DNA of 64,000 nucleotides from Myxococcota bacterium (GCA_024278455.1 JAJRTE010000133.1:9658-73657); one strand, 5' to 3'; shown: positions 8,299 to 53,378, numbered from the stretch's first letter. A program made the numbers and translations. The notes: a model not told the origin generated them from the sequence alone.

Positions 8299-11070
8299 TC
8301 AATCTGCTGTGGAGTCGTCTGGACTGAACGAAATGCTCGACGCCTGGTTGTCCAGGACGTCCTGGCGATAGAATGGTACCACACGATACTGGTTGTCGAG
8401 GTAGGATGGCAACTGGTCGTTGAAGTGGGTGTCCTCCGGGCGTTCGGACTGCCCCCCGGGCAGGATGTCCCAGACGGTGATCTGGCCGGGCTCGAGCGCG
8501 TAGATGGTGCGTTGACTCGGACCGTTGGTCACGTCGAACGTCTCGGGGACCTGCCCCCCGGAAGTGAGCTTGAATTCGGCCACGTCCACGGTGAAGTATC
8601 CCCCGTCGATGGCGAACGGCCCGGCAGTCGCACCGGGCAGAAACGCCTCGGCAGGGTCGTTGAGCGTCAGCAGGTGGTTGGGTGCCCAGGTCCAGCTCTC
8701 CGCGCCTCCGTAACGGGCAGCCAGCGTGTCCGCCGCGTCCAGCAGTGCGTGGAGCAGGATTTCGTCGCGGGTTTCCACGGTCTCGGTGGTATGGTCGTCG
8801 AAGTAGTTGAGCCCGCTCTGGGAAGGAAAATAGGCCGTTCCCGCCTCGATATCGGCGATGGTGTCTCGAGTCGCGTCCAGGAAGTAGGCGAGCGGACGGC
8901 TCAACATGTTGATGTAGTCCGCGCCGAGTTCATCGAACAGGGCACCGATGGTCTCGTCGGCAAACACATCCCGGAGCAAGGTTGCGATCCAGACGTGGAA
9001 AAGCAGCGCCGCGCCGGCGTCGCTGGATGCCTCGTAATCCCAGTTCTCCAGCAGGGCGAGGGCGCTGGCCGCATCGTCGGTCACGAGGTCCGGCCGGTTC
9101 TGCGCGGCATCGAGGAGGTACGGGAGGAAATGGGAGGCATAGCGCATGGTGATGTCCCCCTGGATGCTGGCCATGGTGTCCATGGACACCGGGCCTTCCG
9201 CGAAGGCCGCCCCGAGCCGCTCGGTGATACGGGCCGCACGGGTGCCCAGGTCGTAGATACCGCTGAGGTACACCGGGTCATTGAACACGTCGTTGTCCTG
9301 GACGTTGCCGCCCGGGTCGTTGTTGGCCGTTGCGATGAACCCGGCCTCGGGATTGACCGCGTGGGGAATCACGTCCGGGTCCAGGTATTCCCCGGTCCAT
9401 TCGTAGCCGCCGGAACCAGGGAGGAGCGCGTAGGGGGGGTAGGCAGGGTCCAACTGCTCGCGAACAGGTATGTCGGACAGGGCGAAGTAGGCGATGTCCC
9501 CGCTGGTGTTCGCGAAGACCCAGTTCTGCGCCCCGACGCGCATGTGGCCGAGCGCGGCCTCGAAATCCTCCACGCTCTGGACTCGAGCCAGGTCGATGAA
9601 GGTCCTGAGCCCGGTGACAGGCCGGCTTCCGGTCCACTTGACGCTGACGAAGAACGGCAGTTCCCCGATGACTTCCCTCGGCAGTATCGGGCCGTGGTGA
9701 GGCACCGTGCGGATGGTGACGTACTGGTCCACGGCGTCGTCCACCGTGCCGCCGGGCTGACGCACGCGGATCGTTTCACGCCGAACGGTCATATCCACCC
9801 AATCGTTGTTGAAGAGCACCTGGTTGCCACGAACCTCCTCGAGATAGAGATCGGTGACATCGGCGAAGTTGTTCGTCACGCCCCAGGCGGCGACCTGGTT
9901 GTGGCCGAAGACCACGCCGGGCGCGCCGGCGAACGTGTATCCCATGACGTCGATGTCTCCCCCCTGCTCGGCGGTGTTGAGGTGGACCTGATAGTAGGTG
10001 GCCGGGGCGTCGACACCCTGGTGCGTGTCGTTGGCCAGCAAGGGATAGCCGCTGCTCGTACGGGCACCCGACACGACCCAGTTGTTGCTCCCGCCACCGA
10101 ACTCCGGCAGCCCGAGCAACGGTCGCTGGTGGAGATATCGCCCGAGATCCTCGACGGACACCCCCAGGTTCAGCTTCGCGGCGACTCGAGCGGTGCTCTC
10201 CGTGCCCATGCCGTCGTAGAACCCGGGCACGATGACGGCGTCATCGATCGGTTGCGGCCTGACGAGGTCCGCGACGACGAGTGGGTCGAGGGCGGCGATG
10301 ATCAACCCGACGTTGAGTTCGATGTCGGCGGTGCTCGAGAGGTCATAGGTGATTGCCTTTTCGACGGCCAGGGTATCGGTTGGGTACCATGGGTCGGGCT
10401 GGTAGCCCAGGGCCTCGATCTGCGGCGGCAGGGATGCCCCGTCCCGCGCATCGAGAGCGGCCTCGAGGTAGGCGTTCACGCCGGCGGAGAAGGCGTCGAG
10501 AATGGCGGCGAGGTCCGGGTCGGAGGTCTGCAAGCCGGTGTAAGTCTCGGCTGCGAGGCCGGCGAGGTTCATGGTCCGCGCGCCGGCGTCCGCGGCGAAC
10601 CAGGCAGCACCCAGGATCTCGGCCAGCCGGCCTCTGGCGGCGCGCCGATTGAAGTCCATCTGCCAGAGCCGGTCTCGAGCCTCGACCCACCCTTGCGCCC
10701 ACACCGCGTCGGTCAGGGTGGTTGCGTAGATGTGGGGAACTCCGGCGGTGTCGAAGATCACCTCCACCGGCGCCGAAAGGGTGTACTCGGGGGGCGGCGG
10801 GGCCGGGGTCGGTGTCGGTTCCGGCGTGGGGGTCGGAGCGGGTTCCGGCGTCGCGGTCGGGCTTGGCGCCGGAGTCGGATTTGGCGCCGGTTTCGGCGTG
10901 TCCGTCGGTTCCACGCCCTCGGTCACATCGTCGTCCCCGGTCACATCGTCGTCCCCGGCCTGTGGGGTCGCGGTGTCGATGTCGCCCGGTGTCGGAGCCT
11001 GGTCGTCGTCCTGTCCGCAACCAGGCGCCAGAGCAAGGAGGGAAAGCCAGAACAGGCAGCGGTATTGCAC
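8299..11070 (-). CDS. Penicillin amidase / N-acyl-homoserine lactone acylase family (Ntn hydrolase) lipoprotein
   Basis: Lipobox LLALAPGCGQ. Asp/Pro/Thr-rich linker. GGSNNWVVSGARTSSGYPLLANDTH is the classic penicillin acylase beta-subunit nucleophile motif. 923 aa. Confidence 0.85.
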   Translation of the reverse strand: MQYRCLFWLSLLALAPGCGQDDDQAPTPGDIDTATPQAGDDDVTGDDDVTEGVEPTDTPKPAPNPTPAPSPTATPEPAPTPTPEPTPTPAPPPPEYTLSAPVEVIFDTAGVPHIYATTLTDAVWAQGWVEARDRLWQMDFNRRAARGRLAEILGAAWFAADAGARTMNLAGLAAETYTGLQTSDPDLAAILDAFSAGVNAYLEAALDARDGASLPPQIEALGYQPDPWYPTDTLAVEKAITYDLSSTADIELNVGLIIAALDPLVVADLVRPQPIDDAVIVPGFYDGMGTESTARVAAKLNLGVSVEDLGRYLHQRPLLGLPEFGGGSNNWVVSGARTSSGYPLLANDTHQGVDAPATYYQVHLNTAEQGGDIDVMGYTFAGAPGVVFGHNQVAAWGVTNNFADVTDLYLEEVRGNQVLFNNDWVDMTVRRETIRVRQPGGTVDDAVDQYVTIRTVPHHGPILPREVIGELPFFVSVKWTGSRPVTGLRTFIDLARVQSVEDFEAALGHMRVGAQNWVFANTSGDIAYFALSDIPVREQLDPAYPPYALLPGSGGYEWTGEYLDPDVIPHAVNPEAGFIATANNDPGGNVQDNDVFNDPVYLSGIYDLGTRAARITERLGAAFAEGPVSMDTMASIQGDITMRYASHFLPYLLDAAQNRPDLVTDDAASALALLENWDYEASSDAGAALLFHVWIATLLRDVFADETIGALFDELGADYINMLSRPLAYFLDATRDTIADIEAGTAYFPSQSGLNYFDDHTTETVETRDEILLHALLDAADTLAARYGGAESWTWAPNHLLTLNDPAEAFLPGATAGPFAIDGGYFTVDVAEFKLTSGGQVPETFDVTNGPSQRTIYALEPGQITVWDILPGGQSERPEDTHFNDQLPSYLDNQYRVVPFYRQDVLDNQASSISFSPDDSTAD

Positions 11071-17191: not shown

Positions 17192-17267
17192 TGGTGGAGC
17201 TAAGGAGGATCGAACTCCTGACCTCATGACTGCCAGTCATGCGCTCTCCCAGCTGAGCTATAGCCCC
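17192..17267 (-). tRNA. tRNA-Ala (anticodon GGC), CCA encoded
   Basis: Reverse complement GGGGCTATAGCTCAGCTGGGAGAGCGCATGACTGGCAGTCATGAGGTCAGGAGTTCGATCCTCCTTAGCTCCACCA. 7-bp acceptor stem with G3:U70 Ala identity pair. D-loop AGCTCAGCTGGGAGAGC. Anticodon loop CTGGCAG. T-loop GGTTCGATCC-like. Confidence 0.9.
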
Positions 17268-33122: not shown

Positions 33123-34034
33123 TCAGGACGTTGCAGAGTCGTCCCGCTCCCGCCTCTCCACCGGCACCCCCCGCACCGGCTCGGCACCTCGCTCGGCCAA
33201 GCCCTGCCCCACCCGCGGCAACGGCTCAACCTGGTAGAACCCGGACTTCCGGTCGTACCCCACTATCAAGGCCTCGCTGCCCTTGCTCAGGTCGTTGTCC
33301 CGAGGACACCGGACCTGCAGGAGCAACCCGGCGGCTCCGTCATCGTACTCGCCCATGCCGAACGTCCTGTCCACCCTGAGACTCCGTATCCGGCACGTCC
33401 TTCCGACCAGGGTGCCCTCCACCCGCGTGGTCTCCCTCTCGAACAACCGCTCCAGGGGACGAACGGTGAACGATGTCGCCGGGACCGCCAGGCCCAGCCC
33501 GGCCACTCCCACAACCGCCGCAGCCAGCGCGAACAGGATCCCCCCGAACCCGCCCCGGAGAATCCCGAACGACCCCATGAAGGTGAAGAGCCACGACCAG
33601 AGAACCAAAACGCTGAGCACCACGGTCACGGGCACCTTGCCCACGCGGAGAAAGGCCAGTAGACCCGCCACCGCACCTGCACCCTCGATCGACCCCTCAG
33701 CGCTCCCCTCGACCGCGCCGTCCGCGGCGCCTTCCACCACGCCGTCCGCGGCGCCTTCCACCACGCCGTCCGCGGCGCCTTCGAGCACGCCGTCCGCGGC
33801 GCCTTCGAGCACGCCGTCCGCGGCGCCTTCCAGCACGCCGTCCGCGGCGCCTTCCAGTACGCCGTCCGCGGCGCCTTCCAGCACGCCGTCCGCGGCGCCT
33901 TCGGCACTGCCGCCGAGACCCTCGATGTCGAGGGCACCGAGGATGACCAGGATCCAGTAGCCGAGCACGGTGCCGAGCAGCGTAGTGAACAGCACGGTCG
34001 GCAAGGACAAGGCGATCTGGAGGAACTCGATCAT
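33123..34034 (-). CDS. NfeD/YqiJ-like membrane protein with internal (GAADGV[LV]E)n 8-aa tandem repeat and C-terminal OB-fold-like domain
   Basis: TM helices (LSLPTVLFTTLLGTVLGYWILVILGAL; VTVVLSVLVLWSWLFTFMG). C-terminal TLVGRTCRIRSL...GLLLQVRCPRDNDLSKGSEALIVGYDRKSGFYQVEPL is NfeD-like. Immediately upstream of, and codirectional with, the flotillin gene (classic nfeD-flotillin pairing). Confidence 0.6.
   Translation of the reverse strand: MIEFLQIALSLPTVLFTTLLGTVLGYWILVILGALDIEGLGGSAEGAADGVLEGAADGVLEGAADGVLEGAADGVLEGAADGVLEGAADGVVEGAADGVVEGAADGAVEGSAEGSIEGAGAVAGLLAFLRVGKVPVTVVLSVLVLWSWLFTFMGSFGILRGGFGGILFALAAAVVGVAGLGLAVPATSFTVRPLERLFERETTRVEGTLVGRTCRIRSLRVDRTFGMGEYDDGAAGLLLQVRCPRDNDLSKGSEALIVGYDRKSGFYQVEPLPRVGQGLAERGAEPVRGVPVERRERDDSATS
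33700..33920. repeat. Perfect/near-perfect 24-nt tandem repeat (~8-9 units) within the nfeD-like gene
   Basis: gccgtccgcggcgccttcca(c/g)cac repeated head-to-tail. Only the 3rd/6th codon positions vary (His/Gln/Glu codon), giving GAADGVLE/GAADGVVE. Confidence 0.8.
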
Positions 34035-40622: not shown

Positions 40623-42596
40623 TCATTCCACGTAGATGACGAGATCGAGGAAATCGCAGCCGCCCTCGGAGCAGTGCATGCCCACACGACCAGAGCGGAC
40701 CATCGTGTCGGCACTGCCCAGGTGGACCGTGTTGCCCCCGTAGGTCAGGTCGAAATAGGCGCCCGAGGAGTCCATCTCCACCGACAGGTCGTAGGTCTCG
40801 TTCTGCCAGGTGCCGGTGTTTTCGATGTCCAGGATCTGGGAGGCATTCTTGGTGATGGAGGGACAGGTGTCCCCGTGGGAGCACTGCGCTCCCTGCTGCG
40901 CGTCATAGGGGTCGCTGAGGAAGAATGCGTAGCCGAACGTGGGGCCCCACGCGGAAAACCCGGTGCCGAAATCGATACCGATCCTCGGCCCGGCATCGTT
41001 CCACCGGTCCGTGTAGAGCGACAGGTCGATTCGAACGAGGGAGGCGTTGTCCACCAGGAAGTTGTACCAGCAGACGATGTCCCTATTGTCCGGACACCAG
41101 ACGCTGAGCGCCCCGTCCACGATCCCGTCGTTGGTGCACCCATTGGTCTCGCAGACCAGATGGCTCATGACGTCCGGATCGTCGAACGAGATCACGGTGG
41201 TGCACGGGCCGTAGTCGCCGTCACAGTCCTGGTCCACGTCGTCGCAGGCTTCCGGCGCGTCCGGATGGATCTCCGCGTCCCCGTCGTCGCAATCACCGGC
41301 AGGGTCGCCAGATTGCGCTTCCCCGCTGTCGAGGCAAGACGTGTCGTCAGACGCCACCACGGACGTGTCATCCGGCCGATAGCCATCCCCGTCCTCGTCC
41401 ACGTAGCAGGTCTCGGTACCGTCGCAGTCTTCGTCGACGCCGTCTCCCACCACTTCCGTGGCGCCCGGGTGGATGTCAGGGGCTCCGTCATCGCAGTCGG
41501 TGGCATCGGCCACGTGGCCGACCGGCGCGCCGCACGCCAGGGCTTCCGTGCCAGGATCCCCGTAGCCATCTCCGTCGGCGTCCGCGTAGAACACCTCGAG
41601 AACGCCTTCATCGATATCGCCGTCGCAATTGTCGTCCTTTGCGTTGCACGTCTCTTCCGCCAACGGATTGACGCCGGGATCCTGGTCGTCGCAGTCGCCG
41701 TCCGCGGCGACAAAGCCTTCCGGTGCCTCGCAGGCCTGGGCCGCCACGTCCGCGGTGCCGAAGGCGTCGCCGTCACTGTCCTGGTAGAAGGTCGCCAACA
41801 CACCCTCGTCCACATCCAGGTCACAGTCGTTGTCCCGACCGTCGCACACCTCATCGGCCCCGGGATGGCTCGAGGCGTCGCTGTCATCGCAGTCGTCCCC
41901 GTTTGGAACGCATGTCTCGCACAGTTCGCACGCCGTGCCAGCCTCGATCGGATCACCGTACCCATCTCCATCGAGATCGTAGTGGAAGGGCAAGGCGTCC
42001 ACAGCGTCGTCCTCGTCGATCGTCCCGTCACAGTCGTCGTCCTCGCCGTTGCAGCGTTCGTCCGCGCCGGGATACTGGAGGGGGTCGCCATCGTCGCAGT
42101 CGAGCGCCGCGACGGCCCCGTCTCGATCCAGGTCCACCGCAGGCGTCGAGGTCGGCGGCACCGGCGTGGGGGTCGGCGGCACCGGCGTGGGGCTCGGCGG
42201 CACCGGGGTTGGGGTCGGCGGCACCGGGGTCGAGGTCGGCGGCTCCGGCGTGGGGGTAAGGGGCGCTGCGGTCGGGGCCGGGGGAACGACCGTCGGCGTT
42301 GCCGGTTCCGGCGTGGGCGCGACCGGGTACGGTGATGGTGTCGCAGCCTGAAGCGGGGGGGTCGGCGCGGGTGCAGAAGGCGTGGGTGTGGCCGACCCCG
42401 CGGGCGGCGTGACAGTCGGAGATACGACCACCTGGGTGGGCGTTGCCGCGGCCGGGGTGGGCGAACGCACAGGCGCGGGAGACACGGGGGGACTCGAGGC
42501 ATCGTCGTCCGACGTATCAGGGCAACCGGTCAGAGCAAAGCAGGTTGCGAGCGTCAGGACTCGGCGGGCACGATGGAGCCATCTCCAGGAAAACAT
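40623..42596 (-). CDS. MopE-like Cys-rich metal-binding-repeat lipoprotein with Pro/Thr-rich linker and C-terminal beta-sandwich-like domain
   Basis: Lipobox [10 protein letters not shown]. Roughly 130-aa PT-rich linker ([20 protein letters not shown]). At least 6 repeats of DCDDxDxxxxPGAxExCDGxDxDCDG. 657 aa. Confidence 0.55.
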
Positions 42597-42726
42597 GACA
42601 ACCTCCGGAAGAAGTGCTTCAGCGGACTACAAGAGGACCAGGATTGCGGGGGAGCATACCATCCTGTCCTGGATCGCGATTCGTTCGCAATCTTTTCTGT
42701 TCGGCCGGACCGACTTCTCCTCCATC

Positions 42727-42830
42727 CGGCCCGACAGCAAGATGGACAAGCGGAAGGTTATCGCGGTACACTGGGCCTTGGTCAGGGGCTGTACCGTCTG
42801 TCGAACGTGTTCGGTCACGAAGATAGGACC
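42727..42830. repeat. Direct repeat copy A (~105 nt) immediately upstream of the HEPN/MNT pair
   Basis: ccggcccgacagcaagatggacaagcggaaggttatcgcggtacactgggccttggtcaggggctgtaccgtctgtcgaacgtgttcggtcacgaagatagg. About 85% identical to 43672-43775, with a 37-nt perfect core (ggggctgtaccgtctgtcgaacgtgttcggt). Confidence 0.6.
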
Positions 42831-42855
42831 GTTCGTGCAACCTGGAGGCTGGCCC

Positions 42856-43269
42856 ATGAGCAGCGCAGAGAACATCCGGTGGCGGCAAAGGCTGGAGAGT
42901 TTCCGCAAGGCCCTGGCACAACTGGAAGCAGCGTGCGAGCTGGAAGAGTACTCGGAACTCGAACGCGCCGGGCTGGTGCAGATGTTCGCGTTTTCTTTCG
43001 AACTGGCATGGAAAACCCTCAAGGACAAGCTCTTCTACGATGGTTTCGACGAAAAAACACCGCGCTCGGTCGTGCGCAGAAGCTTTGAAGCCGCGTATCT
43101 CTCGGAGGAAGACTCGGAGATTCTCCTCGACGCTCTTCGCAGGCGAAACCTGCTTGCCCACACATACGACGAGGATGTCGCCGAAAGAGCTGTCAAGCTC
43201 ATCAAAGAAACCTATTTCCCTGTCTTGAAAAGGGCTTGTAGCAAACTGCAGGATACAGACGACGCATGA
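42856..43269 (+). CDS. HEPN-domain protein, nucleotidyltransferase substrate-binding (HI0074/HepT-like) toxin component
   Basis: GGAGG RBS. 137 aa. RQRLESFRKALAQLEAA...FELAWKTLKDKL...RNLLAHTYDEDVAE has the Rx4-6H HEPN motif and HI0074-family layout. Confidence 0.7.
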   Translation: MSSAENIRWRQRLESFRKALAQLEAACELEEYSELERAGLVQMFAFSFELAWKTLKDKLFYDGFDEKTPRSVVRRSFEAAYLSEEDSEILLDALRRRNLLAHTYDEDVAERAVKLIKETYFPVLKRACSKLQDTDDA

Positions 43270-43616
43270 CAGATGGGCTGAAGGACACGTATCGCGAAGC
43301 GATCATTGCGCTTTTCGCAGCATGTCCGCGGGTGGACCGGGCGGTGCTGTTCGGCTCCCGCGCGATGGGCACGTTCAGACGCACGTCGGATGTGGATATC
43401 GCGCTGTTCGGGGACGAGTTGACTATGGCCGACCAGGCCAAGTTGAAAGAACAAATCGAAGACCTGTCCATGCCCCAGTCGATCGATTTGCTGTTGTACC
43501 GGACCCTCGAGAACGACAACCTCCGGGAGCACATCCGCAGGCACGGCGTGGAGTGGTTCAGACGAACCGCCCCAGAGGATGTCCTCTCCACGAACGAAAT
43601 GGGGCGGCGAGACTGA
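43266..43616 (+). CDS. Minimal nucleotidyltransferase (MNT/MntA-like) antitoxin component
   Basis: ATGA overlap with the HEPN gene. AVLFGSRAMGTFRRTSDVDIALFGD carries the GSx10-13DxD nucleotidyltransferase motif. 116 aa. Confidence 0.75.
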   Translation: MTDGLKDTYREAIIALFAACPRVDRAVLFGSRAMGTFRRTSDVDIALFGDELTMADQAKLKEQIEDLSMPQSIDLLLYRTLENDNLREHIRRHGVEWFRRTAPEDVLSTNEMGRRD

Positions 43617-43671
43617 GGTGGGGTCGCCCCGGGCCTGAATGGAAGAGAAAAGGCATTCACGGGTGGCATGG

Positions 43672-43775
43672 CGGCCCGACAACAGGATGGACGGACGGAA
43701 CGTCATCGCGCTACACTGGGCCTGGGTCGGGGGCTGTACCGTCTGTCGAACGTGTTCGGTTCGGAAGAGAGGGGG
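43672..43775. repeat. Direct repeat copy B (~105 nt) immediately downstream of the HEPN/MNT pair
   Basis: gcggcccgacaacaggatggacggacggaacgtcatcgcgctacactgggcctgggtcgggggctgtaccgtctgtcgaacgtgttcggttcggaagagaggg. Confidence 0.6.
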
Positions 43776-44208
43776 ATCCGCCAATCGCCAGTCGGCAAAC
43801 GGGCAACACCCCGTCTGTCCAAGCGTGGAACGAGCCGGACCCGAAGGCCACAGATGGAGACGCGTGACATGTCGATCGTGGACAAACTGGCGTCGATGCA
43901 AAACAGGGCAGATGATCTCCCAAACCAGGAACTGGCCCGAGGAATCGCCGAAAGCAAGGATTCCGGGGCCATCGAGGAGATCGTTTGAGAAGGTGCCGTC
44001 CAAAGGACGTGGCACGGCATGCTGAATCTATCTCGGTAGCCGTGACCGGGAACGCGCGATCTGAGTTCCTGGACGTGTTGGAAGCTCGAAAGGACACGTT
44101 GACCACATCGCGACTGAAAAGAGTCAACAAGGTGCTCAGGGCTTCTCCCGCCGCGATCGAGGCGCCAAAATGGCCCCAGCGGGCAACCTTGCCACCTGGA
44201 GTTCGCCC

Positions 44209-44898
44209 ATGACAGGTCCGAAACGTGTCCTCGTCGTCTACTACTCCCTCACCGGACAGATGGAGCGCGTGCTCGACGCCCTCGTGCCGCGGCTCGAGGA
44301 GGCCGGGCACCAGGTGGACCGGCGCAAGGTCGTTCCGGTCCACGAATGGACGCTGCCTTTCGACCCGGTTCGCTTCTACGTGTACTGGGCCAGGACCTGG
44401 GCCGGAAAGACGCTTACGCAGCCCCTCGAGCCCATGGATTTCCAGGGGATCGAGCCGGATTGCGTGCTGCTGGGATTCCAACCCTGGTACCTGGCGCCGT
44501 CGATCCCGGTCAACAGCTTTCTCCACGGCGAGCATTCGGCGATCTTCCGCGACCGGCCGGTCATTGCGGTGATGACCTGTCGGAACCGCTGGGAGCGGGC
44601 GCTTCGTATCGCAAGAGACAGGATCGACGAGGCGGGTGGCCGGCTGATCGACGCGCTCGTCGTGCAGGACCAGGTACCCGAGCCGGCCAACATGGCGACC
44701 ACCTACTACCGCCTGATGGAGAACCGTGTGCCTCCTCCTGGCCACTGGATCGCGAGATTCCAACCGTTCGGTATCGGAGACCCGGCGGTGGATGTCGTGC
44801 GGGATTGGGGGCGGGACTTGGCCGTCCGCCTGACCGAAGACCGACTCGGCGACCGCCTCGGGTGGCGTATCGTCAACGGGCGGTTGAAGCTGGTGTGA
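44209..44898 (+). CDS. Flavodoxin-like fold protein (flavodoxin/NAD(P)H-dependent oxidoreductase-like), function unknown
   Basis: N-terminal KRVLVVYYSLTGQMERVLDAL is the classic flavodoxin-like first beta-strand/P-loop. 229 aa. Start chosen at the internal ATG after GGAG. Confidence 0.4.
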   Translation: MTGPKRVLVVYYSLTGQMERVLDALVPRLEEAGHQVDRRKVVPVHEWTLPFDPVRFYVYWARTWAGKTLTQPLEPMDFQGIEPDCVLLGFQPWYLAPSIPVNSFLHGEHSAIFRDRPVIAVMTCRNRWERALRIARDRIDEAGGRLIDALVVQDQVPEPANMATTYYRLMENRVPPPGHWIARFQPFGIGDPAVDVVRDWGRDLAVRLTEDRLGDRLGWRIVNGRLKLV

Positions 44899-45014
44899 AG
44901 ACGGGATGCCGTGTGCGCTCGAGAGGCCTGAAGCGAGCCGCGGCGGGCTGGTGTCCGCCCTGGGGGGGGAACCACTGCCACTCCGCCCGTCCCGGGTGCT
45001 CATCGAGCCTGCCA

Positions 45015-46850
45015 TCAACCGGCCTTGGACAGCAAAACGTCCCACTCCGCGGTCCTGACCGAGGATGGCAGGCCCCCATCCCCCCTTTCGGTCATCGCCG
45101 CCCGCCCCTCGTCCAGCCACGACGCGGGCGTCCACCACGGTTCGGCGGTCGCATCGGAGGCGGCCTGGCTCCCGGCCGTGTTCGCTCGAGCCAGCTTGGG
45201 CGACCCCCTGGTCCGGGACAGCCGACTGTGGCTGGATTCGGACACCGGGAGCGCCGGGCGGGCACCGGCCGCCCCCGCGGCTCGAGGTATCGGCGCAGCG
45301 GTGCCCTCGGTCCGCTTCGGATCGGGCTCCCAGAAGTGTGAAGGGACCCACCAGAAATCCCCGTACCGTTCCAGTGCCCCGCCGCCGTTGGAGCGCGCGC
45401 TCGAGGCGGCCGCGCGACCAGTGCCCGGCGCTGCCTCCCCGGTCGCTCGCCACGCCGTTCGAGCGTCCTCGAGCCACGAATCGAACACGATCGACGGTTC
45501 CCCACCGTCGAAGGCGATGCGCGCAAAGTCACGGTAGCCGGGCTCGAGGCGTTCCGGCCGGTCCTTTCGCGTCACCGGCGCCCATGCCCCTGTGTCGATG
45601 AAGGTGACATCCCTGGACAGGGGGTGCATACGCGGCACGTGCGTGTGGCCGAAAGCGACCACGCGGACCGGGACCAGGCGGCTGATGGCTCGAGCCACTC
45701 GAGGCAAGCGTTCTTCGATACTGAAAACCGTCTCGCCTTCCGTGACCTTTTCGTAGAGGACCACGATTGCCGGGGCCAGGCAAACGGTCGCGGCGATCTT
45801 GGCCCACAGCGGCGTTGCGCTCGCCCACAACGTCACGACCCCTGCCGCCACCGCCAGCACGACAAGCACCCTGTCCATCCACAACTCCCTGACCATCCGG
45901 AACACGCGGCTCGTGATCGGAGGCTGCTGCAGACGGTGCAACGACCGGAGCGTAGCCGGGTCGAGCCCGTACCGCCGGGCGACTCGAGACAGGAACCTGC
46001 CCGCGCTGGGAGGATGGGCCAACTGGCGTCTGGTGACCTCGAGGGACCGGAAGATGACGGCCAGGCTCCCGAACAGCCAGGTGAGTGCCAGGCTGCGCCG
46101 CGTGAACGCGTAGTGCTTCACCCAGTGTTTGAAGTAGCAGAACAGGTTGAGAATGTAGTCGGTGTTGTGCGGGTTGAAAAAGCCCATCCGCGTCATCAAG
46201 TAGCGGTTGGCGAGGTTGCCCATGGGGATGGCCAGCACCTCCTCCCCGCGCATTTTCACTGTCGGAGCGAGCAGGTAACGGAAAGTCGTGTACGAATCAT
46301 ACTGGTGGCCGTGTTCGACATAGATCTCACCCGGAACGACGTAGAACCAGGGCTCGATCACGATCGCATCTTCGGCAAAATACCCCCCCGAATCCTCTGC
46401 ACACCCCCGGAGCCAGCGAAAGAACGCCTGCTGCACCGCGGGGAAATGGAATTCCCGGTCGTGGTTGCCCATCACGTACACCACGCGGTGGCCGCCGCAC
46501 AGAAACCCCACCAGTGCATGAACGAACCGGGGATGGTGCGCCAGGATCCGCTCGAGCTTCCACACCGATTTGTCCTCGGTGGCGTCGAGCCCCCGCTTAC
46601 GCTCCGCGCGCCGCACCGGCCAGGGGGGGGAATCCGGCACTGCCCGGACCAGGTCGAAGTCGAAGATGTCGCCGTTGAGCACGAGCGTGAGAGGTCCTCG
46701 TCCAGCTTCCCGGGCCACGAAGTCCGCCAGCAGGTCGGCGAACGGACCGTCGAAGAGGTAGCGCGAACTCTTGTGGTACATCCACCCATCCGGATGGTCC
46801 TCCACGTCGCACAAATGGAGATCGGAGACGATGAGGTATCGGTTTCCCAT
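45015..46850 (-). CDS. Membrane-associated calcineurin-like metallophosphoesterase with low-complexity C-terminal tail
   Basis: MGNRYLIVSDLHL (motif I). LNGDIFD (motif II). MGNHD (motif III). VAFGHTHVP (motifs V/VI). Two internal TM helices (LVVLAVAAGVVTLWA; IAATVCLAPAIVVL). Confidence 0.7.
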   Translation of the reverse strand: MGNRYLIVSDLHLCDVEDHPDGWMYHKSSRYLFDGPFADLLADFVAREAGRGPLTLVLNGDIFDFDLVRAVPDSPPWPVRRAERKRGLDATEDKSVWKLERILAHHPRFVHALVGFLCGGHRVVYVMGNHDREFHFPAVQQAFFRWLRGCAEDSGGYFAEDAIVIEPWFYVVPGEIYVEHGHQYDSYTTFRYLLAPTVKMRGEEVLAIPMGNLANRYLMTRMGFFNPHNTDYILNLFCYFKHWVKHYAFTRRSLALTWLFGSLAVIFRSLEVTRRQLAHPPSAGRFLSRVARRYGLDPATLRSLHRLQQPPITSRVFRMVRELWMDRVLVVLAVAAGVVTLWASATPLWAKIAATVCLAPAIVVLYEKVTEGETVFSIEERLPRVARAISRLVPVRVVAFGHTHVPRMHPLSRDVTFIDTGAWAPVTRKDRPERLEPGYRDFARIAFDGGEPSIVFDSWLEDARTAWRATGEAAPGTGRAAASSARSNGGGALERYGDFWWVPSHFWEPDPKRTEGTAAPIPRAAGAAGARPALPVSESSHSRLSRTRGSPKLARANTAGSQAASDATAEPWWTPASWLDEGRAAMTERGDGGLPSSVRTAEWDVLLSKAG

Positions 46851-47220
46851 GCCTGCTTCCGTATGTTGTCGAGGCCGGCGGACCTCACCGGCACGGCCCC
46901 GTTGCTATCCAACCGCGTTCTCGAGGCCTTCGCGCCTGACCTTGGATCGGATCTCATGGCGCCGAACTCGAGTTCTGATCCCATGGCGCCTCGCCGAATC
47001 GACCGCCATTCTCACGGAGCGCCCGTTTCGGACACAGCGGCCATGGTCCGTGACGGCGTGCTTCAGAGGCGTACAGCGCCCCCCCCTTTCCTGCCACTCC
47101 TCGCGCCGCGGGCAAAGTGCATGACAGACTCAGGCCGATTCGGGTAAATGGATGTAGAAGGGTACCGGTATGCGGACCGGCGCCTGAAAACCGGCCCACA
47201 CCTGCGCGGGAGAATCGCCG

Positions 47221-48801
47221 ATGACACGACACCTGCCCTCGACGCCCCTTTCCCACTGTTCGACTGGCGGATCACCACGCCTGCCGCTGCCCGGACGGCT
47301 GGCCATCGGCCTCGCCACGGTCTGTTGCGCCTGGAGCATCGCCGCCTCGAGCACGACCCTGGCCGACAGCGTGGTTGAGGAGCGCGGTTGGGTCCCCATG
47401 CATGGTGTCATGCACGCCCACACCCCCTATTCCCACGACGCATGCGACGATAACGGCCTGAGCGAAGACGGGACCCCCAACCCGGAATGTCTTGCCGACC
47501 TGCGTGCCGGCGCGTGTGCCTCGAGACACCAATTCATCTTCTTCACCGACCATCCGTCGTACATGCGGGACTATCCCATCGAAAGCCTGGTCCTCTACGA
47601 CCCGGCCCAGGGCGACCGGCTGCTCTACGGCGACGCGGGTATCCTGGCCAACGAGCTGACGTGCAGCGATGGCACGGAAACCTGGCACATCTGGATCACC
47701 AACGGGGCCGAGGGGGGCCACAACATGCCCATCGGGCTCGAGGCGCACCTGGCCGACCCGGACCTCTATTCCGTGGGTTTTGCCGACGACGACGATTTGG
47801 CCGCGGGGCAGGAGGAAGTGGAACAGATTCACGGCGCGGGCGGCGTGGCGCTCCTGGCCCACGCCGAGGCGGCGGAAGTGTCTGCGGCACGCATGGTCGA
47901 ACTGGGGATCGACGGTGTGGAGTTGTACAATGCGCACGCCAACTTCGAATATGTGCTCACCCATAATCCGTTCCAGATCCTGGACCTCGAGACATGGATG
48001 GGCACTGGCCCGGGGAGTCCGACCGACTACGACCTCGTCGCCCTGGTGATGATTCCCTACATTTCGGCCGCCCCCATCGAGAAGTGGGACGAAACCCTGG
48101 CCCAAACCCGGATGACCGGGGTCATCGGCACCGATGTCCACCAGAATGTGGTGCTGGACCCTTATTGTGAGCCGAGTTCACCTCTCGCGGTGCTGTGCCA
48201 GCGGCTGAAGGCGTTTTTCCCGAACATGATCACCTACCTGGAGACCGGGGGACCCATCCCCATGGGCGATGGCGAACGGCTCGACAGCTACCGCCGAATG
48301 TTTCGGTGGTTCTCCAACCACGTGCTGGCTTCGACCCGCGACCTCGCCGCGGTCAAGGAGGCGGTGGCCGCCGGAAGAATGTTCGCAGCCTACGACATCC
48401 TCGGGCTTCCCGACGGATTCGACCTGTTCGCGCGGAACGAGGTGACCGGGGCCCTGTTCGAGATGGGAGACGAGGCGAAGTACACCCCCGACCTGAAACT
48501 CTGGGTCACCCTGCCCGTGGTCTCCATGGCCGACCCCTATGCGACCTGGACGGCCGAACAAGCGGCCCAAGCCGCTGTCCGGGCCGAGGTCATCCGGATC
48601 GACGCATCGGGGGCCAACGTGATAGCCACCGCAGTGGGATCGGGCGGCCGGGTCGCCGTGCAAGTGCCCGGTACGGGAGCCTACCGGGTCGAAGTCTACA
48701 TCCAACCACGCCACCTCATCCCGGCGCTCGGGGGCGAGCGGGCCTTGGGCCTCGAGGAATACCTCTGGATCTGGTCCAACCCGGTCTACGTCGCACGCTG
48801 A
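47221..48801 (+). CDS. PHP-domain (polymerase/histidinol phosphatase-like) metal-dependent phosphoesterase, secreted
   Basis: MHGVMHAHTPYSHDA is the PHP motif I (HxH...SHD). Later His/Asp-rich motifs (FFTDHP, LLAHAE, ELYNAH). Signal peptide LAIGLATVCCAWSIAASS. Confidence 0.6.
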   Translation: MTRHLPSTPLSHCSTGGSPRLPLPGRLAIGLATVCCAWSIAASSTTLADSVVEERGWVPMHGVMHAHTPYSHDACDDNGLSEDGTPNPECLADLRAGACASRHQFIFFTDHPSYMRDYPIESLVLYDPAQGDRLLYGDAGILANELTCSDGTETWHIWITNGAEGGHNMPIGLEAHLADPDLYSVGFADDDDLAAGQEEVEQIHGAGGVALLAHAEAAEVSAARMVELGIDGVELYNAHANFEYVLTHNPFQILDLETWMGTGPGSPTDYDLVALVMIPYISAAPIEKWDETLAQTRMTGVIGTDVHQNVVLDPYCEPSSPLAVLCQRLKAFFPNMITYLETGGPIPMGDGERLDSYRRMFRWFSNHVLASTRDLAAVKEAVAAGRMFAAYDILGLPDGFDLFARNEVTGALFEMGDEAKYTPDLKLWVTLPVVSMADPYATWTAEQAAQAAVRAEVIRIDASGANVIATAVGSGGRVAVQVPGTGAYRVEVYIQPRHLIPALGGERALGLEEYLWIWSNPVYVAR

Positions 48802-48979
48802 CGAGCAGGCACCGGCCGCGGAACGAGCGGCCCAATGACGGCAACTGAACAGGGACTGGCGGCAGGCCCGGGGATCCTGCAAGATAGGGGTATGTGCCGG
48901 CCGGGAGCCGGCACGGTACCGAGAGGTGTTTCCATCAACCTCCTGCCCAATCGGTGCAGGACGACCAGGAGAAGCCACC

Positions 48980-49900
48980 ATGCCGAATCGAGCCCGTCGA
49001 GCCCCAGGCTATCGCCACTCGAACCAACGAGGCATCATCAGGATCTCCCTGCTCACGATGATGACCGCGATGGCCGCGACAACGGCCGACGACTGCCAGC
49101 AACCCACCACGCAGGGTGACACCGTCTGCTACCCGGGCGCCGACCAGCGCTACAACACCTGCTACACTCTCGATCCCATGCCCGCGCCCCCCCCTTCCGA
49201 CTACGTCTACCCATCGACCTGCGAACCGTCCTACGGCTCGAACTACCAGACGCCCGCGTACCTGCTCGACCTGTCCTCGGCCGATCCGTCGGAGTACCTG
49301 GCGCCCAATTTCCAGCTCGGAGAACTGGCGCAGGAGTGGAAAGGCCAATACGCCGTCCTCCAGGTCCACGCCGTGGAGAGCTTGCAACGGATCCGCGATA
49401 TCGTCGGGCCGCTCAACGTCAATTCGGGATACCGGAGCCCAGGGTACAACGCTTCGGTGGACGGCGCCACCTGCTCGAGGCACATGTACGGAGACGCCTT
49501 CGACATGTATCCCAGCTACGCTTCACTTGGCGAACTCGCCGACGCCTGTCGAACCGTGGGCGCCGATTTCGTACAGGTCTATGCCACCTGGGTCCATTGC
49601 GACTGGCGATACGACAGACTCGACGACGCCTACTACCGCATGGCCGGCGCGCCCGGGATCTTCGACGATATCCCCGTCATGGACGCCCGTATCGTGTTGG
49701 AGAATGGACGCTGGTCCGCCCCGGCCACCGGATGGGACGAAGGGGAACCGCTCAGGCAGTGGACCGCCTTCGACGCCAGGGGCAACGTGCTGCTCGAGGC
49801 CACCGGGACCTCGTTCGTCGCCCCGACCGGCACCGCCGAAGTCTCCGTCGTGGTGGGCCTCGAGTTCACCCTCCGCGCACCCGTCCCCGACACCATCTAG
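48980..49900 (+). CDS. Peptidase M15A / DUF882 (YcbK-like) family zinc metallopeptidase, secreted
   Basis: AGGAG RBS. LQVHAVESLQRIRDIVGPLNVNSGYRSPGYNASVDGATCSRHMYGDAFD matches the M15A/DUF882 signature (SGYR..N...GG...S.H..G.A.D). Signal peptide ISLLTMMTAMAATTA. Confidence 0.6.
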   Translation: MPNRARRAPGYRHSNQRGIIRISLLTMMTAMAATTADDCQQPTTQGDTVCYPGADQRYNTCYTLDPMPAPPPSDYVYPSTCEPSYGSNYQTPAYLLDLSSADPSEYLAPNFQLGELAQEWKGQYAVLQVHAVESLQRIRDIVGPLNVNSGYRSPGYNASVDGATCSRHMYGDAFDMYPSYASLGELADACRTVGADFVQVYATWVHCDWRYDRLDDAYYRMAGAPGIFDDIPVMDARIVLENGRWSAPATGWDEGEPLRQWTAFDARGNVLLEATGTSFVAPTGTAEVSVVVGLEFTLRAPVPDTI

Positions 49901-50006
49901 ATAACGCTCGCCGGTCTATTCCACCAGACAGCCGCACTGGATTTCTCCTGCCGTCCATGGCATCATGGCTACCGGGACAACCTGCAACCGGCACGAGGAG
50001 AAAACC

Positions 50007-53000
50007 ATGCGACCGCACCGGGACAAGCCCATCCTTGCACACTACACCGTCCTGATCCTCATTTTCGCCCTGATCTCCGCCTGCTCGAGCGATGACGACG
50101 ACAGCAGCCGGGTGGGCTCCAGCCCCACGCCCACGACCGCGCCGGGCGACGACGACCTCTCTCCCGGCGACGACGACCTCTCTCCCGGCGACGACGACCT
50201 CTCCCCGGGCGACGACGACCTCTCCCCGGGCGACGACGACCTCTCTCCCGGCGACGATGACACACCGGCCACGGATGCCGACCTGGACGGCTACTTTCCC
50301 CCGGGAGATTGCGACGATACCGACCCGCTCGTCAATCCGGGCGTCGAGGAGGTGTGCGGGGACGGCATAGACAACAACTGCGATGGATGGGTAGACAAGG
50401 GCGGAAAGGTGGTCACCTGGTATCCGGACCAGGATGGCGACGGCTACGGCGACGACGCCCTGGCCGTACCCGCTTGCGCGCAACCAGAGAAATTCATCCT
50501 CACCGGCGGTGATTGCGACGACACCCGATCCGACGTCAACCCGTCCGCGGAGGAGGTCTGCGACGACCCGGCGACCGGCGCCATGGACAACGATTGCGAC
50601 GGAGAGATCGATGAAGGGCTGATCAACGCCTGCGGGGAATGCGGCCCCCTCCCGGAGGAGACCTGCAATCACATTGACGACGACTGCAATGGGCTGGTGG
50701 ACGACATCGATCTGAACGGCGACGGGATCTTCGACTGCTCCGACTATGACGGGGACGGAGTCGACTCGGACGACGGAGACTGCGACGACAGCGACGCCAC
50801 CGTCTACCCCGGCGCAGAGGAGTCGTGCGACGGATACGACAACGACTGCGACGGCCAGGTCGATGAGGAAGGTGCCGGATGTGAATGCGTGGTCGAGCCG
50901 GTCAGCGGCCCTTACGTATCGATCCCGGCCGTGCTCGCAGACATCCTCGAGGGTACCGTCTCCTGCACCGTCATCGTGGTTCAGCCCGGAACCTACCGCG
51001 GAACGGTCGATTTCACGGGCATCCATGGACCCCTGCGCGTCGTCGCCGCCGAGGGCCCCGAAAACACGATCCTCACCCTCGCAGACGGAGAAAGCGGCAG
51101 TGTCATCTTCTTTCCGGACGACGATATCCAGGCCGACGTGGCCCTCGTGGGTTTCACGATTACCGGCGGGACCGGAAGCGGTGGAGGCACCTGCCCGGCC
51201 GAAACCTGCGGGGGAGGTATCCACATCGACGGCTGCGCCGCTCCCCGGCTCGAGGGCAACCGTATCGTCGGCAACCAGGCAGACATCGGCGGGGGCCTGT
51301 TCATCGGCGACTGCGCGAACCCCTCCGCACCGGGACCCAACCTGGCTGACAACCGTATCGGTGACGAAGGCGTGCCCAACCGCGCGCTGGAGTGCCACGG
51401 CGGCGGCGTCTACATCGGTGCGGCCAACGTCACCCTCGAGGCGGATACCGACATACGGATTAGCTTCAACACCATCGGGCAGGACGACGGGACCTGCGAC
51501 CAGAACGACGGAAGGGGCGTCGGCCTGCACGTCACCGGGGGCACCCTCACCGCAAATCGAGCCCGTCTCGAGGTGTCATCGAACCACTTCGCAACCTCCA
51601 TCTACAACACATCGGGCGGCGGCGCCTTCCTCCAGGACGCCCGTCTCGATCTGACCGGCGGCACATGGGTCCTCGAGGCCAACCGCATCGACTGCGGTGA
51701 CAACGCTACCTGCCGGGGCGGCGGCCTCTTCGCTACCGGCAGCGACATCGACCTGGACGGAACCACCCTGGTCGTGCGGGCCAACTACTCCTCCGACGAT
51801 GGGGGCGGTGTCTACCTCTCGAGCAACACGTTGACCCTGGAGGGCGATGCGACCGCTGTCTTCGACGCCAATGAGGCCGGGAGAAGCGGCGGCGCGTTCC
51901 ACGTGGGAGCCGGTGGCCGTGCGCAGTTGGCGAGCGTCACCTTCTCAGACAATATCGCGGACCTGGGCGGCGCCGCCTACAACGCCGGCGAACTCGCCGT
52001 GGAGGGCGCCAGTGTCGAGGACAACGCCGCCGGATCGGACGGCGGCGGGATCGTGAGCGTGGGGTTGCTCGACCTGGGCGGAAGTGTCTTCACCGGAAAC
52101 AGCGCCAGCGGCGGCGGGGGCGCCATCCATGCCGGGGGCACGCTCAGGATGTCATCCTGCACGTTTGCCAGCAACGGTGCCGGCATCGACGGAGGCGCCA
52201 TCGAGATCGCCGGCAACACCAACCTCGAAGACCTCGCCGACCTGATCTTTTCGCAGAACACGGCCGCAGGAAACGGGGGCGCCGTGGAAGCACACGCGTC
52301 GCGCTTGACCCTCGCCCGCTCGACCTTCGAGGACAACGAAGCCGGGCTCGACGGGGGTGCCATCCACGGTGAAGGTCCTCTCGCCGTGACGAGCAGTCTA
52401 TTCCGAAACAATACCGCTGCAACCAGCGGCGGTGCGATCCGCATGGCCCCCGGTTCGCCCGGCGTCACGCTCGACGGCGTCCAGTTCTCGAGCAATGTCG
52501 CCGGAAGTAGCGGTGGCGCCATCTCGATCGACGCCGACCTCCTGGAACTCTCTTTCGCCGTCCTCGATCGCAACGAGGCGGCCGACTGCGCCGCCACGGA
52601 CATCCTGGGCGGTTCGTCGTCCATCGCGTTCGCGCATGTCTACTCCAATGGGGCAACGGCGGGTGGAAACGGCGCTATCGTGTGCCTCGATGGGACCGAG
52701 GTGGACCTGCACCATGTCATTCTGGCGGACAATGCCACGGCGGGCACTTCGGGTGGGACGCTGCGGGTCTCGGCGACTGCCAGCCGTCTCGAGTACCTCA
52801 CCCTGCTCCGCTCCGGTCTCGCCGACGAAGCTGCAGCCGACGTCCGTGTCGAGGGGAGTACGGCCACGGTCTCGCACGACATCCTCGTGGGCAGCGGCGC
52901 GGGCATCGGGTTGTCCGCCGGCGCGGCGTCGACAGTGGACGGCTGCGACCTCAACGACATCTCGGGGTATGGCGCCGCGGTCAGTGGTCTCGAGTGCACC

Positions 53001-53378
53001 GGGTTCGGCACATTGACGCCTCCCTTCGTGGCCAGCAGCGACGACGGGAACTACTGCAACGAAGACCTCCACCTCGAGTCGATAGCGGAACACCCCGAAT
53101 ACGGCGCCTATGGTGGGCCGGACGGCGACTGGACCCTGGTGCCGGCGGAGTGCGGCGGGTGCGAGACGACGGAGCTGTCCCGCTGGTATCGCGACGAGGA
53201 TGGAGACACTTACGGCGACGCGGCGTCCCCTGTCCTGGCGTGCGACCGCCCTCCTGGCTACGTCTCGAACGGCGACGACTGCGACGACCACAACATGACC
53301 ATCCACCCCGGCGCGAGCGAGGTGTTGCGCAACGGCAAGGACGACGATTGCGACGGGGTCGTGGACGAGCGGAACTGA
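50007..53378 (+). CDS. Large MopE-repeat + polymorphic-membrane-protein-like beta-helix lipoprotein with (GDDDLSP)6 acidic tandem repeat
   Basis: GGAGA RBS. Lipobox LILIFALISACSSDD. Six 21-nt tandem repeats encoding PGDDDLS. Five MopE-type repeats at both termini. Central ~700 aa of Gly-rich beta-helix repeats (GGGAIHAGG, DGGAIEIAG, NGGAVEAH, DGGAIHGEG, SGGAIRM, SGGAISID). Confidence 0.6.
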   Translation: MRPHRDKPILAHYTVLILIFALISACSSDDDDSSRVGSSPTPTTAPGDDDLSPGDDDLSPGDDDLSPGDDDLSPGDDDLSPGDDDTPATDADLDGYFPPGDCDDTDPLVNPGVEEVCGDGIDNNCDGWVDKGGKVVTWYPDQDGDGYGDDALAVPACAQPEKFILTGGDCDDTRSDVNPSAEEVCDDPATGAMDNDCDGEIDEGLINACGECGPLPEETCNHIDDDCNGLVDDIDLNGDGIFDCSDYDGDGVDSDDGDCDDSDATVYPGAEESCDGYDNDCDGQVDEEGAGCECVVEPVSGPYVSIPAVLADILEGTVSCTVIVVQPGTYRGTVDFTGIHGPLRVVAAEGPENTILTLADGESGSVIFFPDDDIQADVALVGFTITGGTGSGGGTCPAETCGGGIHIDGCAAPRLEGNRIVGNQADIGGGLFIGDCANPSAPGPNLADNRIGDEGVPNRALECHGGGVYIGAANVTLEADTDIRISFNTIGQDDGTCDQNDGRGVGLHVTGGTLTANRARLEVSSNHFATSIYNTSGGGAFLQDARLDLTGGTWVLEANRIDCGDNATCRGGGLFATGSDIDLDGTTLVVRANYSSDDGGGVYLSSNTLTLEGDATAVFDANEAGRSGGAFHVGAGGRAQLASVTFSDNIADLGGAAYNAGELAVEGASVEDNAAGSDGGGIVSVGLLDLGGSVFTGNSASGGGGAIHAGGTLRMSSCTFASNGAGIDGGAIEIAGNTNLEDLADLIFSQNTAAGNGGAVEAHASRLTLARSTFEDNEAGLDGGAIHGEGPLAVTSSLFRNNTAATSGGAIRMAPGSPGVTLDGVQFSSNVAGSSGGAISIDADLLELSFAVLDRNEAADCAATDILGGSSSIAFAHVYSNGATAGGNGAIVCLDGTEVDLHHVILADNATAGTSGGTLRVSATASRLEYLTLLRSGLADEAAADVRVEGSTATVSHDILVGSGAGIGLSAGAASTVDGCDLNDISGYGAAVSGLECTGFGTLTPPFVASSDDGNYCNEDLHLESIAEHPEYGAYGGPDGDWTLVPAECGGCETTELSRWYRDEDGDTYGDAASPVLACDRPPGYVSNGDDCDDHNMTIHPGASEVLRNGKDDDCDGVVDERN
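50143..50265. repeat. 21-nt tandem repeat ×~6 (cgggcgacgacgacctctctc) inside the lipoprotein gene
   Basis: Head-to-tail near-identical units visible in the sequence, with only ccc/ccg synonymous variation. Confidence 0.8.

Follow-up and report, generated by a model that had tools for sequence, protein, structure and literature searches.

The locus examined here lies in a 64,000-nt stretch of DNA from a Myxococcota bacterium (hereafter the window), where a short non-coding sequence, R, occurs in two direct copies, one immediately before the start of a HEPN/MNT gene pair and the other immediately before that of a run of small ORFs. The question is what R is and why it stands in front of both. 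A preliminary description had proposed a duplicated promoter/leader, with an sRNA or regulatory element of a toxin–antitoxin (TA) family as a variant, a cassette-type duplication, or recombination sites.

The repeat search of the window returned R as a two-copy family of 101 nt with 86% identity and a spacing of 945, and the position-by-position count gave 87 identical positions out of 101, which bears out the earlier estimate of ~105 nt and ~85% identity. Copy A (R-A, 42727–42827, + strand) is non-coding, and copy B (R-B, 43672–43772, + strand) ends 96 nt upstream of the ATG of the pseudogene described below. The copies differ at positions 42737, 42740, 42748–50, 42756, 42759, 42766, 42779, 42784, 42816–18, and 42824, and blastn aligned them with E = 4e-23. 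In the pairwise alignment, the similarity was sharply bounded, starting at CGGCCCGACA and ending at GAAGA(T/G)AGG. A 30-nt core of R occurred twice in the window and never in 100 shuffled sequences. The perfect core was shorter than previously thought, since the longest uninterrupted run is 31 nt (42785–42815) rather than 37 nt, and it does not significantly exceed what 14 randomly placed mismatches would leave (p = 0.06, or p = 0.22 if the two 3-nt mismatch clusters are counted as single events, giving 10 events). Neither blastn-short nor nhmmer (--max, with the two-copy profile) found a third copy of R in the 64-kb window.

The gene behind R-A (42856–43269, + strand) encodes a predicted HEPN toxin of 137 aa, which matched PF08780 with 110.9 bits (cutoff 31.8; E = 5e-32) and TIGR01987 (HI0074) with 80.5 bits (cutoff 55.8). 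The translation of 42856–43266 reads R97-N-L-L-A-H102, so that the catalytic Rx4–6H motif is intact (R97-x4-H102, RNLLAH). It is followed by the gene of an MNT antitoxin-type nucleotidyltransferase of 116 aa (43266–43616, + strand; PF18765/PF01909) carrying the motif G30-S31-x10-D42-x-D44, which matched PF18765 with 55.4 bits (cutoff 26.9; E = 7e-15), and the start codon of this second gene overlaps the stop of the first (ATGA, 43266–43269). The gene order is thus HEPN → MNT, and the PF08780, TIGR01987, and PF18765 matches confirm that an HI0074-type HEPN gene is followed here by an MNT gene, as had been proposed. The NCBIfam equivalog models gave scores under their cutoffs (HepT_toxin, 15.2 bits vs 60; MntA_antitoxin, 46.4 bits vs 60), which places the pair in the HI0074/HI0073 branch and not in the Shewanella equivalog. 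The pair shares the Rx4H HEPN, the GSx10DxD nucleotidyltransferase, and the overlapping ORFs with HI0073/HI0074-type pairs (type VII HepT/MntA, e.g., SO_3165/SO_3166 of Shewanella oneidensis), in which the RNase toxicity is neutralised by AMPylation of the toxin by MNT; the pair of the window may be likened to them on the basis of its sequence. In HI0073/HI0074 and SO_3165/3166, the MNT gene precedes the HEPN gene, whereas the HEPN gene comes first in the window.

The HEPN-first arrangement had been regarded as the less common order. Measured against the HI0073/HI0074 and SO_3165/3166 pairs it does differ, but in the clade to which the pair belongs it proved to be the rule. The HEPN protein shares only 70% identity with its nearest relatives, which two look-ups covering six contigs placed in type I restriction–modification operons with the order hsdM – HEPN – [MNT domain fused to HsdS]; since the nearest homologues are such hsdM-HEPN-MNT::hsdS operons, HEPN-first is the normal order in the clade. 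The MNT protein of the window likewise has its nearest relatives there, aligning to residues 1–101 of the MNT::HsdS fusions with 60–62% identity. In the contigs L004 (204–3677), L015 (860–4538), and L016–L019, the MNT domain (residues ~11–98) was found fused N-terminally to HsdS (PF01420). In contrast to these modules, the MNT protein of the window is free-standing with its 116 aa, and no hsdM or hsdS remnant was found flanking the pair. In the closest HEPN homologues (70%), the upstream sequence codes for HsdM, so that elsewhere R does not belong to the TA module. Considering these results, the locus is a stand-alone HI0074-type HEPN/MNT pair, a predicted TA module of a known kind.

The small ORFs behind R-B were said to look like pieces of a disrupted gene, and they turned out to be the two ends of a single one. 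In an exhaustive HMMER search, the 75-aa ORF at 43985–44212 (+ strand) hit 45 proteins, the full-length ones being 207–225 aa long, and matched their last ~55 residues (about 152–207) with E values down to 4e-8; only its residues 1–~55 take part in this alignment, while its tail runs into the leader of the flavodoxin-like gene that follows. The N-termini of the full-length proteins (e.g., MSVLSRLASAQGQRSDLPNQALARELAAGKDKKAIREV in P0152) aligned to the other small ORF (43869–43988, + strand), which consists of 39 codons followed by TGA and corresponds to residues 2–40 of these ~210-aa proteins. As the N-terminal and C-terminal alignments point to one family, the two ORFs, which lie in different frames, are the two ends of one ~210-aa gene, named X' here, from which, judging by these alignments, ~113 internal codons are missing and whose reading frame is disrupted. 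The concatenated fragments had no match in the word-indexed protein search, and it was the exhaustive HMMER search that identified the pseudogene; annotation pipelines might otherwise call two small ORFs here. Neither Pfam nor NCBIfam has a model for the family, which gave only weak, sub-threshold matches of ARM/HEAT type; its members include the uncharacterised ~210-aa proteins P0122, P0125, P0137, P0150, P0152, and P0154. The closest member (on contig L012) is encoded in an operon of four genes, together with small proteins lacking any significant Pfam match, and a different ORF lies upstream of it. That the X family might be linked to HEPN/MNT pairs was considered and rejected, the 138-aa and 100-aa genes that follow this closest homologue being neither HEPN nor MNT.

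These identities bear on the simplest account of two direct repeats, namely that one gene unit was duplicated in tandem and its second copy then decayed. The repeats are 945 bp apart, and the gene behind the second one has indeed decayed; however, the genes behind the two copies (HEPN/MNT and a member of an ARM/HEAT-like ~210-aa family) are unrelated, which refutes this account, and the similarity breaks off sharply on either side of the 101 nt. We therefore regard it as scarcely credible. The combination envisaged earlier, two copies only and a tandem gene duplication with a decayed second copy, thus holds in its first half, as no further copy was detectable in the window or in the collections scanned, and fails in its second.

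Both copies of R carry promoter-like hexamers in the same register. R-A contains a sigma-70-like pair consisting of a −35 box TGGACA (42743–42748) and a −10 box TACACT (42767–42772) with an 18-nt spacer, and R-B contains TGGACG (43688–43693) and TACACT (43712–43717). The promoter scan called one site in 2.2 kb, the one in R-A, against 0.2 expected in shuffled sequences, with a 9/12 match to the consensus; the pair in R-B scores 8/12, under the scan threshold, and keeps the −10 box and five of the six positions of the −35 box. R-A ends 28 nt before the HEPN ATG and so does occupy the place of the promoter and 5′-UTR of the pair, as the preliminary description had it. From this consensus match, we infer that R-A and R-B may be active as promoters.

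A transcribed leader could also act as an RNA. If R encoded or contained a functional RNA, such as an sRNA, an RNA antitoxin-like regulator, or a shared cis-regulatory leader (riboswitch or attenuator), the 31-nt perfect run at 42785–42815, which is downstream of the putative −10 box and includes the small palindrome CGAAC-GT-GTTCG, would lie in the transcribed leader. Rfam 15 matched only a tRNA in the whole window at gathering thresholds, and in 42500–44300 the best hits (E ≤ 10) had E = 3.2–7.1, far under the gathering scores. (The tRNA gene, 17195–17267, − strand, RF00005, 64.8 bits, is the single one of the window; it is ~25 kb from the repeats, and no link to the island was seen.) The MFE z-scores of the RNA from both strands of both copies were not significant (−1.16, +0.56, −0.58, and −0.58), the two copies fold differently, and the one notable stem of R-A, CGGTACA/TGTACCG, is broken in R-B by a G-to-C change at 42766 with no compensation. 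No terminator-like site was called on the + strand, and the 31-nt run, as shown above, is not beyond chance. Moreover, HEPN/MNT systems are neutralised by a protein antitoxin. The idea of an sRNA or structured regulatory RNA thus found no support, and we consider a functional RNA distinctly improbable.

Nor does R seem to be translated. It contains several open frames, as expected at this GC content, but the substitutions between R-A and R-B are mostly non-synonymous in every one of them, and for this reason both a small ORF and an in-frame N-terminal extension of HEPN (MDKRKVIAVHWALVRGCTVCRTC...) were rejected.

The palindromic CGAACGTGTTCG, which follows the −10-like hexamer and lies within the core of perfect conservation, could alternatively belong to the operator of one transcription factor, in which case the similarity of the copies would have been kept by selection or gene conversion for co-regulation instead of stemming from a recent duplication. 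The arms of the palindrome are only 5 bp long, the extra conservation of the core falls short of significance, the 86% identity over 101 nt far exceeds what an operator needs, and one of the two "regulated" genes is a pseudogene. A shared operator would also be compatible with a duplication, to which it adds little, and we hold it to be improbable as an explanation of its own.

The remaining proposals concern mobility. The locus resembles integron cassettes (attC-bounded, in chromosomal integrons or CALINs) in that small gene units of about 0.5–0.95 kb are each accompanied by a ~100-nt repeat, and TA pairs are common integron cassettes. An attC site has imperfect inverted repeats (R''-L''...L'-R') through which its bottom strand folds into a single long hairpin, and a GTTRRRY core at its 3′ end. 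The locus differs from these cassettes in that R lies 5′ of each unit and lacks imperfect dyad symmetry, and direct reading found no RYYYAAC/GTTRRRY (R''/R') pair at its ends. The ssDNA folds of both strands of both copies had z-scores between −1.12 and −0.04, with no element-spanning hairpin. Two copies of R in 64 kb do not make an integron array, and no intI was present in the neighbouring ORFs from 33970 to 55020; Pfam scans of the same ORFs revealed no integrase, transposase, or resolvase within ~8 kb on either side. With dyad symmetry, core sites, a third copy, and a nearby integrase or transposase all missing, the notion of an integron-like cassette or recombination site found no support. 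That R could be the boundary or recombination site of an undescribed, integrase-distant gene-cassette system in an uncultured high-GC lineage is highly improbable in our judgement; if it were true, each of the two units, the 945-bp HEPN-MNT one and that of X, would be independently mobile with its own promoter, and more R-bounded cassettes would be expected elsewhere in the genome. In Tn3-family transposons, TA pairs, including one HEPN-MNT case, adjoin res sites or promoters and borrow local promoters (PMC7157771). The pair in the window is similarly placed directly at a putative regulatory or recombination region, while tnpA, tnpR, and terminal inverted repeats of the Tn3-family type were absent from the locus.

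The origin of the arrangement was approached by comparison with an orthologous locus lacking the TA pair, as had been suggested. The first gene downstream of the pseudogene (44209–44898, + strand) is intact and encodes a flavodoxin-like protein of 229 aa, which has a 76%-identical ortholog on a 44.9-kb contig of a related MAG (L005). The tblastx comparison showed that 44182–53372 of the window is collinear with 9974–19110 of L005; the collinearity starts 27 nt upstream of the flavodoxin-like gene and extends rightwards, and the shared genes encode the flavodoxin-like protein, a metallophosphoesterase, a 516–526-aa protein, a peptidase M15, and a MopE-repeat protein. Leftwards of the insertion, tblastx detected no collinearity with L005. 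The intergenic region upstream of the flavodoxin-like gene is 354 bp in L005 and 1612 bp in the window, and the 354-bp region contains no TA pair, no X gene or pseudogene, and no R. The GC content is 0.53–0.60 across 42500–44100, compared with 0.65–0.75 or more in the flanking genes. The absence of the TA pair, X, and R from L005 together with the low GC content marks 42597 to ~44180 (1.6 kb) as a lineage-specific insertion at a synteny breakpoint. The left neighbour differs between the loci, being a 657-aa MopE-repeat lipoprotein in the window (40623–42596, − strand) and a 1556-aa peptidase M36/PA/MopE protein in L005 (4976–9646, − strand), and the genes further left are not collinear with L005; thus, the TA/pseudogene island marks a rearrangement breakpoint. 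The HEPN/MNT pair was most likely acquired horizontally, and the locus is most likely an ordinary small insertion scar.

Some features of the surroundings may be recorded here. The 229-aa flavodoxin-like protein belongs to no Pfam family and gave weak TIGR01753/TIGR01754 matches, and its gene adjoins a convergent metallophosphoesterase gene (601–611 aa) both in the window (44209–46850) and in L005 (10001–12572). More distant flavodoxin-like homologues have other neighbours (a divergent epimerase, a peptidase M1) and likewise lack X upstream, and the related-locus search of one genome-contig collection with this protein returned no relative. In-frame tandem repeats occur at 42121–42351 (21 nt), 33655–33927 (24 (12) nt), and 50121–50282 (21 nt); the first codes for the Pro/Thr-rich linker that follows the lipoprotein signal in the MopE-repeat protein at 40623–42596, and the last lies within the second MopE-repeat protein (49965–53378), where it encodes (D-D-D-L-S-P-G)n.

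An insertion of this kind could have arrived in one piece, that is, the whole 1.6-kb R-A/HEPN-MNT/R-B/X block could have been imported from a donor in which R was a repeated intergenic element, for example a family-specific promoter/operator or the cassette boundary of an unidentified recombination system, and the duplication would then not have taken place in situ. The low, foreign-like GC content of both gene units, the absence of R from orthologous loci, the position of the stretch at a synteny breakpoint, and the occurrence of the "R + gene(s)" unit twice in tandem would all fit such an import. Searches outside the window gave no true copy of R: the 20-nt core CGTCTGTCGAACGTGTTCGG had no match in GTDB species genomes or viral contigs, and the whole island had no match among plasmids (distant blastn). 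In JGI metagenome contigs, the core had three matches, all within coding sequence spelling 'RLSNVFG', two of them in apparent epimerase-type genes and one in another gene, with no similarity past the seed; they were rejected as true R copies, being coding coincidences that arose by chance, and an origin of R as an epimerase gene remnant was rejected, too. A one-piece import is further disfavoured by the lack of a recombinase, integrase, or transposase within ~8 kb on either side and by R itself, which lacks dyad symmetry and attC-type core sites and does not recur behind the second unit. The translation-initiation region of the HEPN gene, considered below, also resembles that of the resident gene and speaks for a local origin. 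We judge the import rather unlikely; it is nevertheless the main alternative to a local duplication, and more likely than an RNA function or than a shared operator as the main cause of the similarity.

The resemblance in question lies between R-A and the HEPN gene. The initiation region of HEPN, TGCAACCTGGAGGCTGGCCCATG (42836–42858, + strand), is identical at 19 of 23 positions to TGCGACCTGGAGCGTGACCCATG (9981–10003), the RBS/start region of the flavodoxin-like gene in L005, a post hoc observation that covers 23 nt, 7 of which (GGAG, ATG) are functionally constrained. This was the top score among the 1521 ATG-ending 23-mers in the window, the runner-up reaching 16. Direct reading against the RBS/start region of the resident flavodoxin-like gene, TGCCACCTGGAGTTCGCCCATG (44190–44211, + strand), which lies just inside the point at ~44182 where the collinearity with L005 begins, gave 20/24 identities with one gap. 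The identity of this RBS box (~83%) resembles that of R-A and R-B (86%). The HEPN start region thus looks like a paralogous copy of the one in front of the flavodoxin-like gene. This suggests that a resident translation-initiation region was duplicated and that the foreign TA ORF became attached to the copy. R gave no alignment better than shuffled sequences with the orthologous intergenic regions of L005 and L008, and L005, the nearest orthologous locus, has diverged too far for non-coding sequence to be aligned past the RBS box. Since R is undetectable in these two intergenic regions, the evidence that points to its resident origin is the linked similarity of the RBS box.

The −35/−10-like pair in both copies and the likeness of the RBS regions make a duplicated promoter/leader the best fit among the three explanations originally offered. 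We consider it somewhat probable that R is the duplicated non-coding promoter-plus-leader of the resident flavodoxin-like operon, which now serves two inserted cassettes. According to this local duplication, R and the RBS box would have formed the original promoter-leader-start region of the flavodoxin-like gene, and two foreign pieces, a stand-alone HEPN-MNT module and a ~210-aa ARM/HEAT-like gene, would have landed in the short intergenic region. On capture of the HEPN-MNT module, the resident promoter, leader, and RBS/start region would have been duplicated, possibly by tandem duplication or by illegitimate recombination at the insertion junction, and the foreign module would have gained local expression signals. 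The X gene with its own 96-nt leader would have been inserted between R-B and the resident RBS and would later have lost its middle and its frame. If R and the RBS box are regarded as one 132-nt unit, its second copy must have been split later by the X insertion, an extra event in the order that we infer. At present, R-A and the copy of the resident RBS would drive the HEPN-MNT bicistron, and R-B would drive a transcript running through the dead gene X' into the flavodoxin-like gene.

The arrangement is therefore most likely not a new RNA or mobile-cassette system but an ordinary by-product of gene insertion, and the locus opens no new question. It may have consequences for the stability of the module, as RecA-dependent recombination between the repeats, with their 31-nt core, could delete exactly the 945-bp unit consisting of one repeat and the TA pair, and an active TA pair, being addictive, would counteract such a deletion. 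The locus offers an example of how a TA module that is usual in type I restriction–modification operons may turn into a free-standing chromosomal pair equipped with a duplicated resident promoter, leader, and RBS: the module would have landed where synteny breaks, in a short intergenic region, and the direct repeats that bracket it there could also delete it again.
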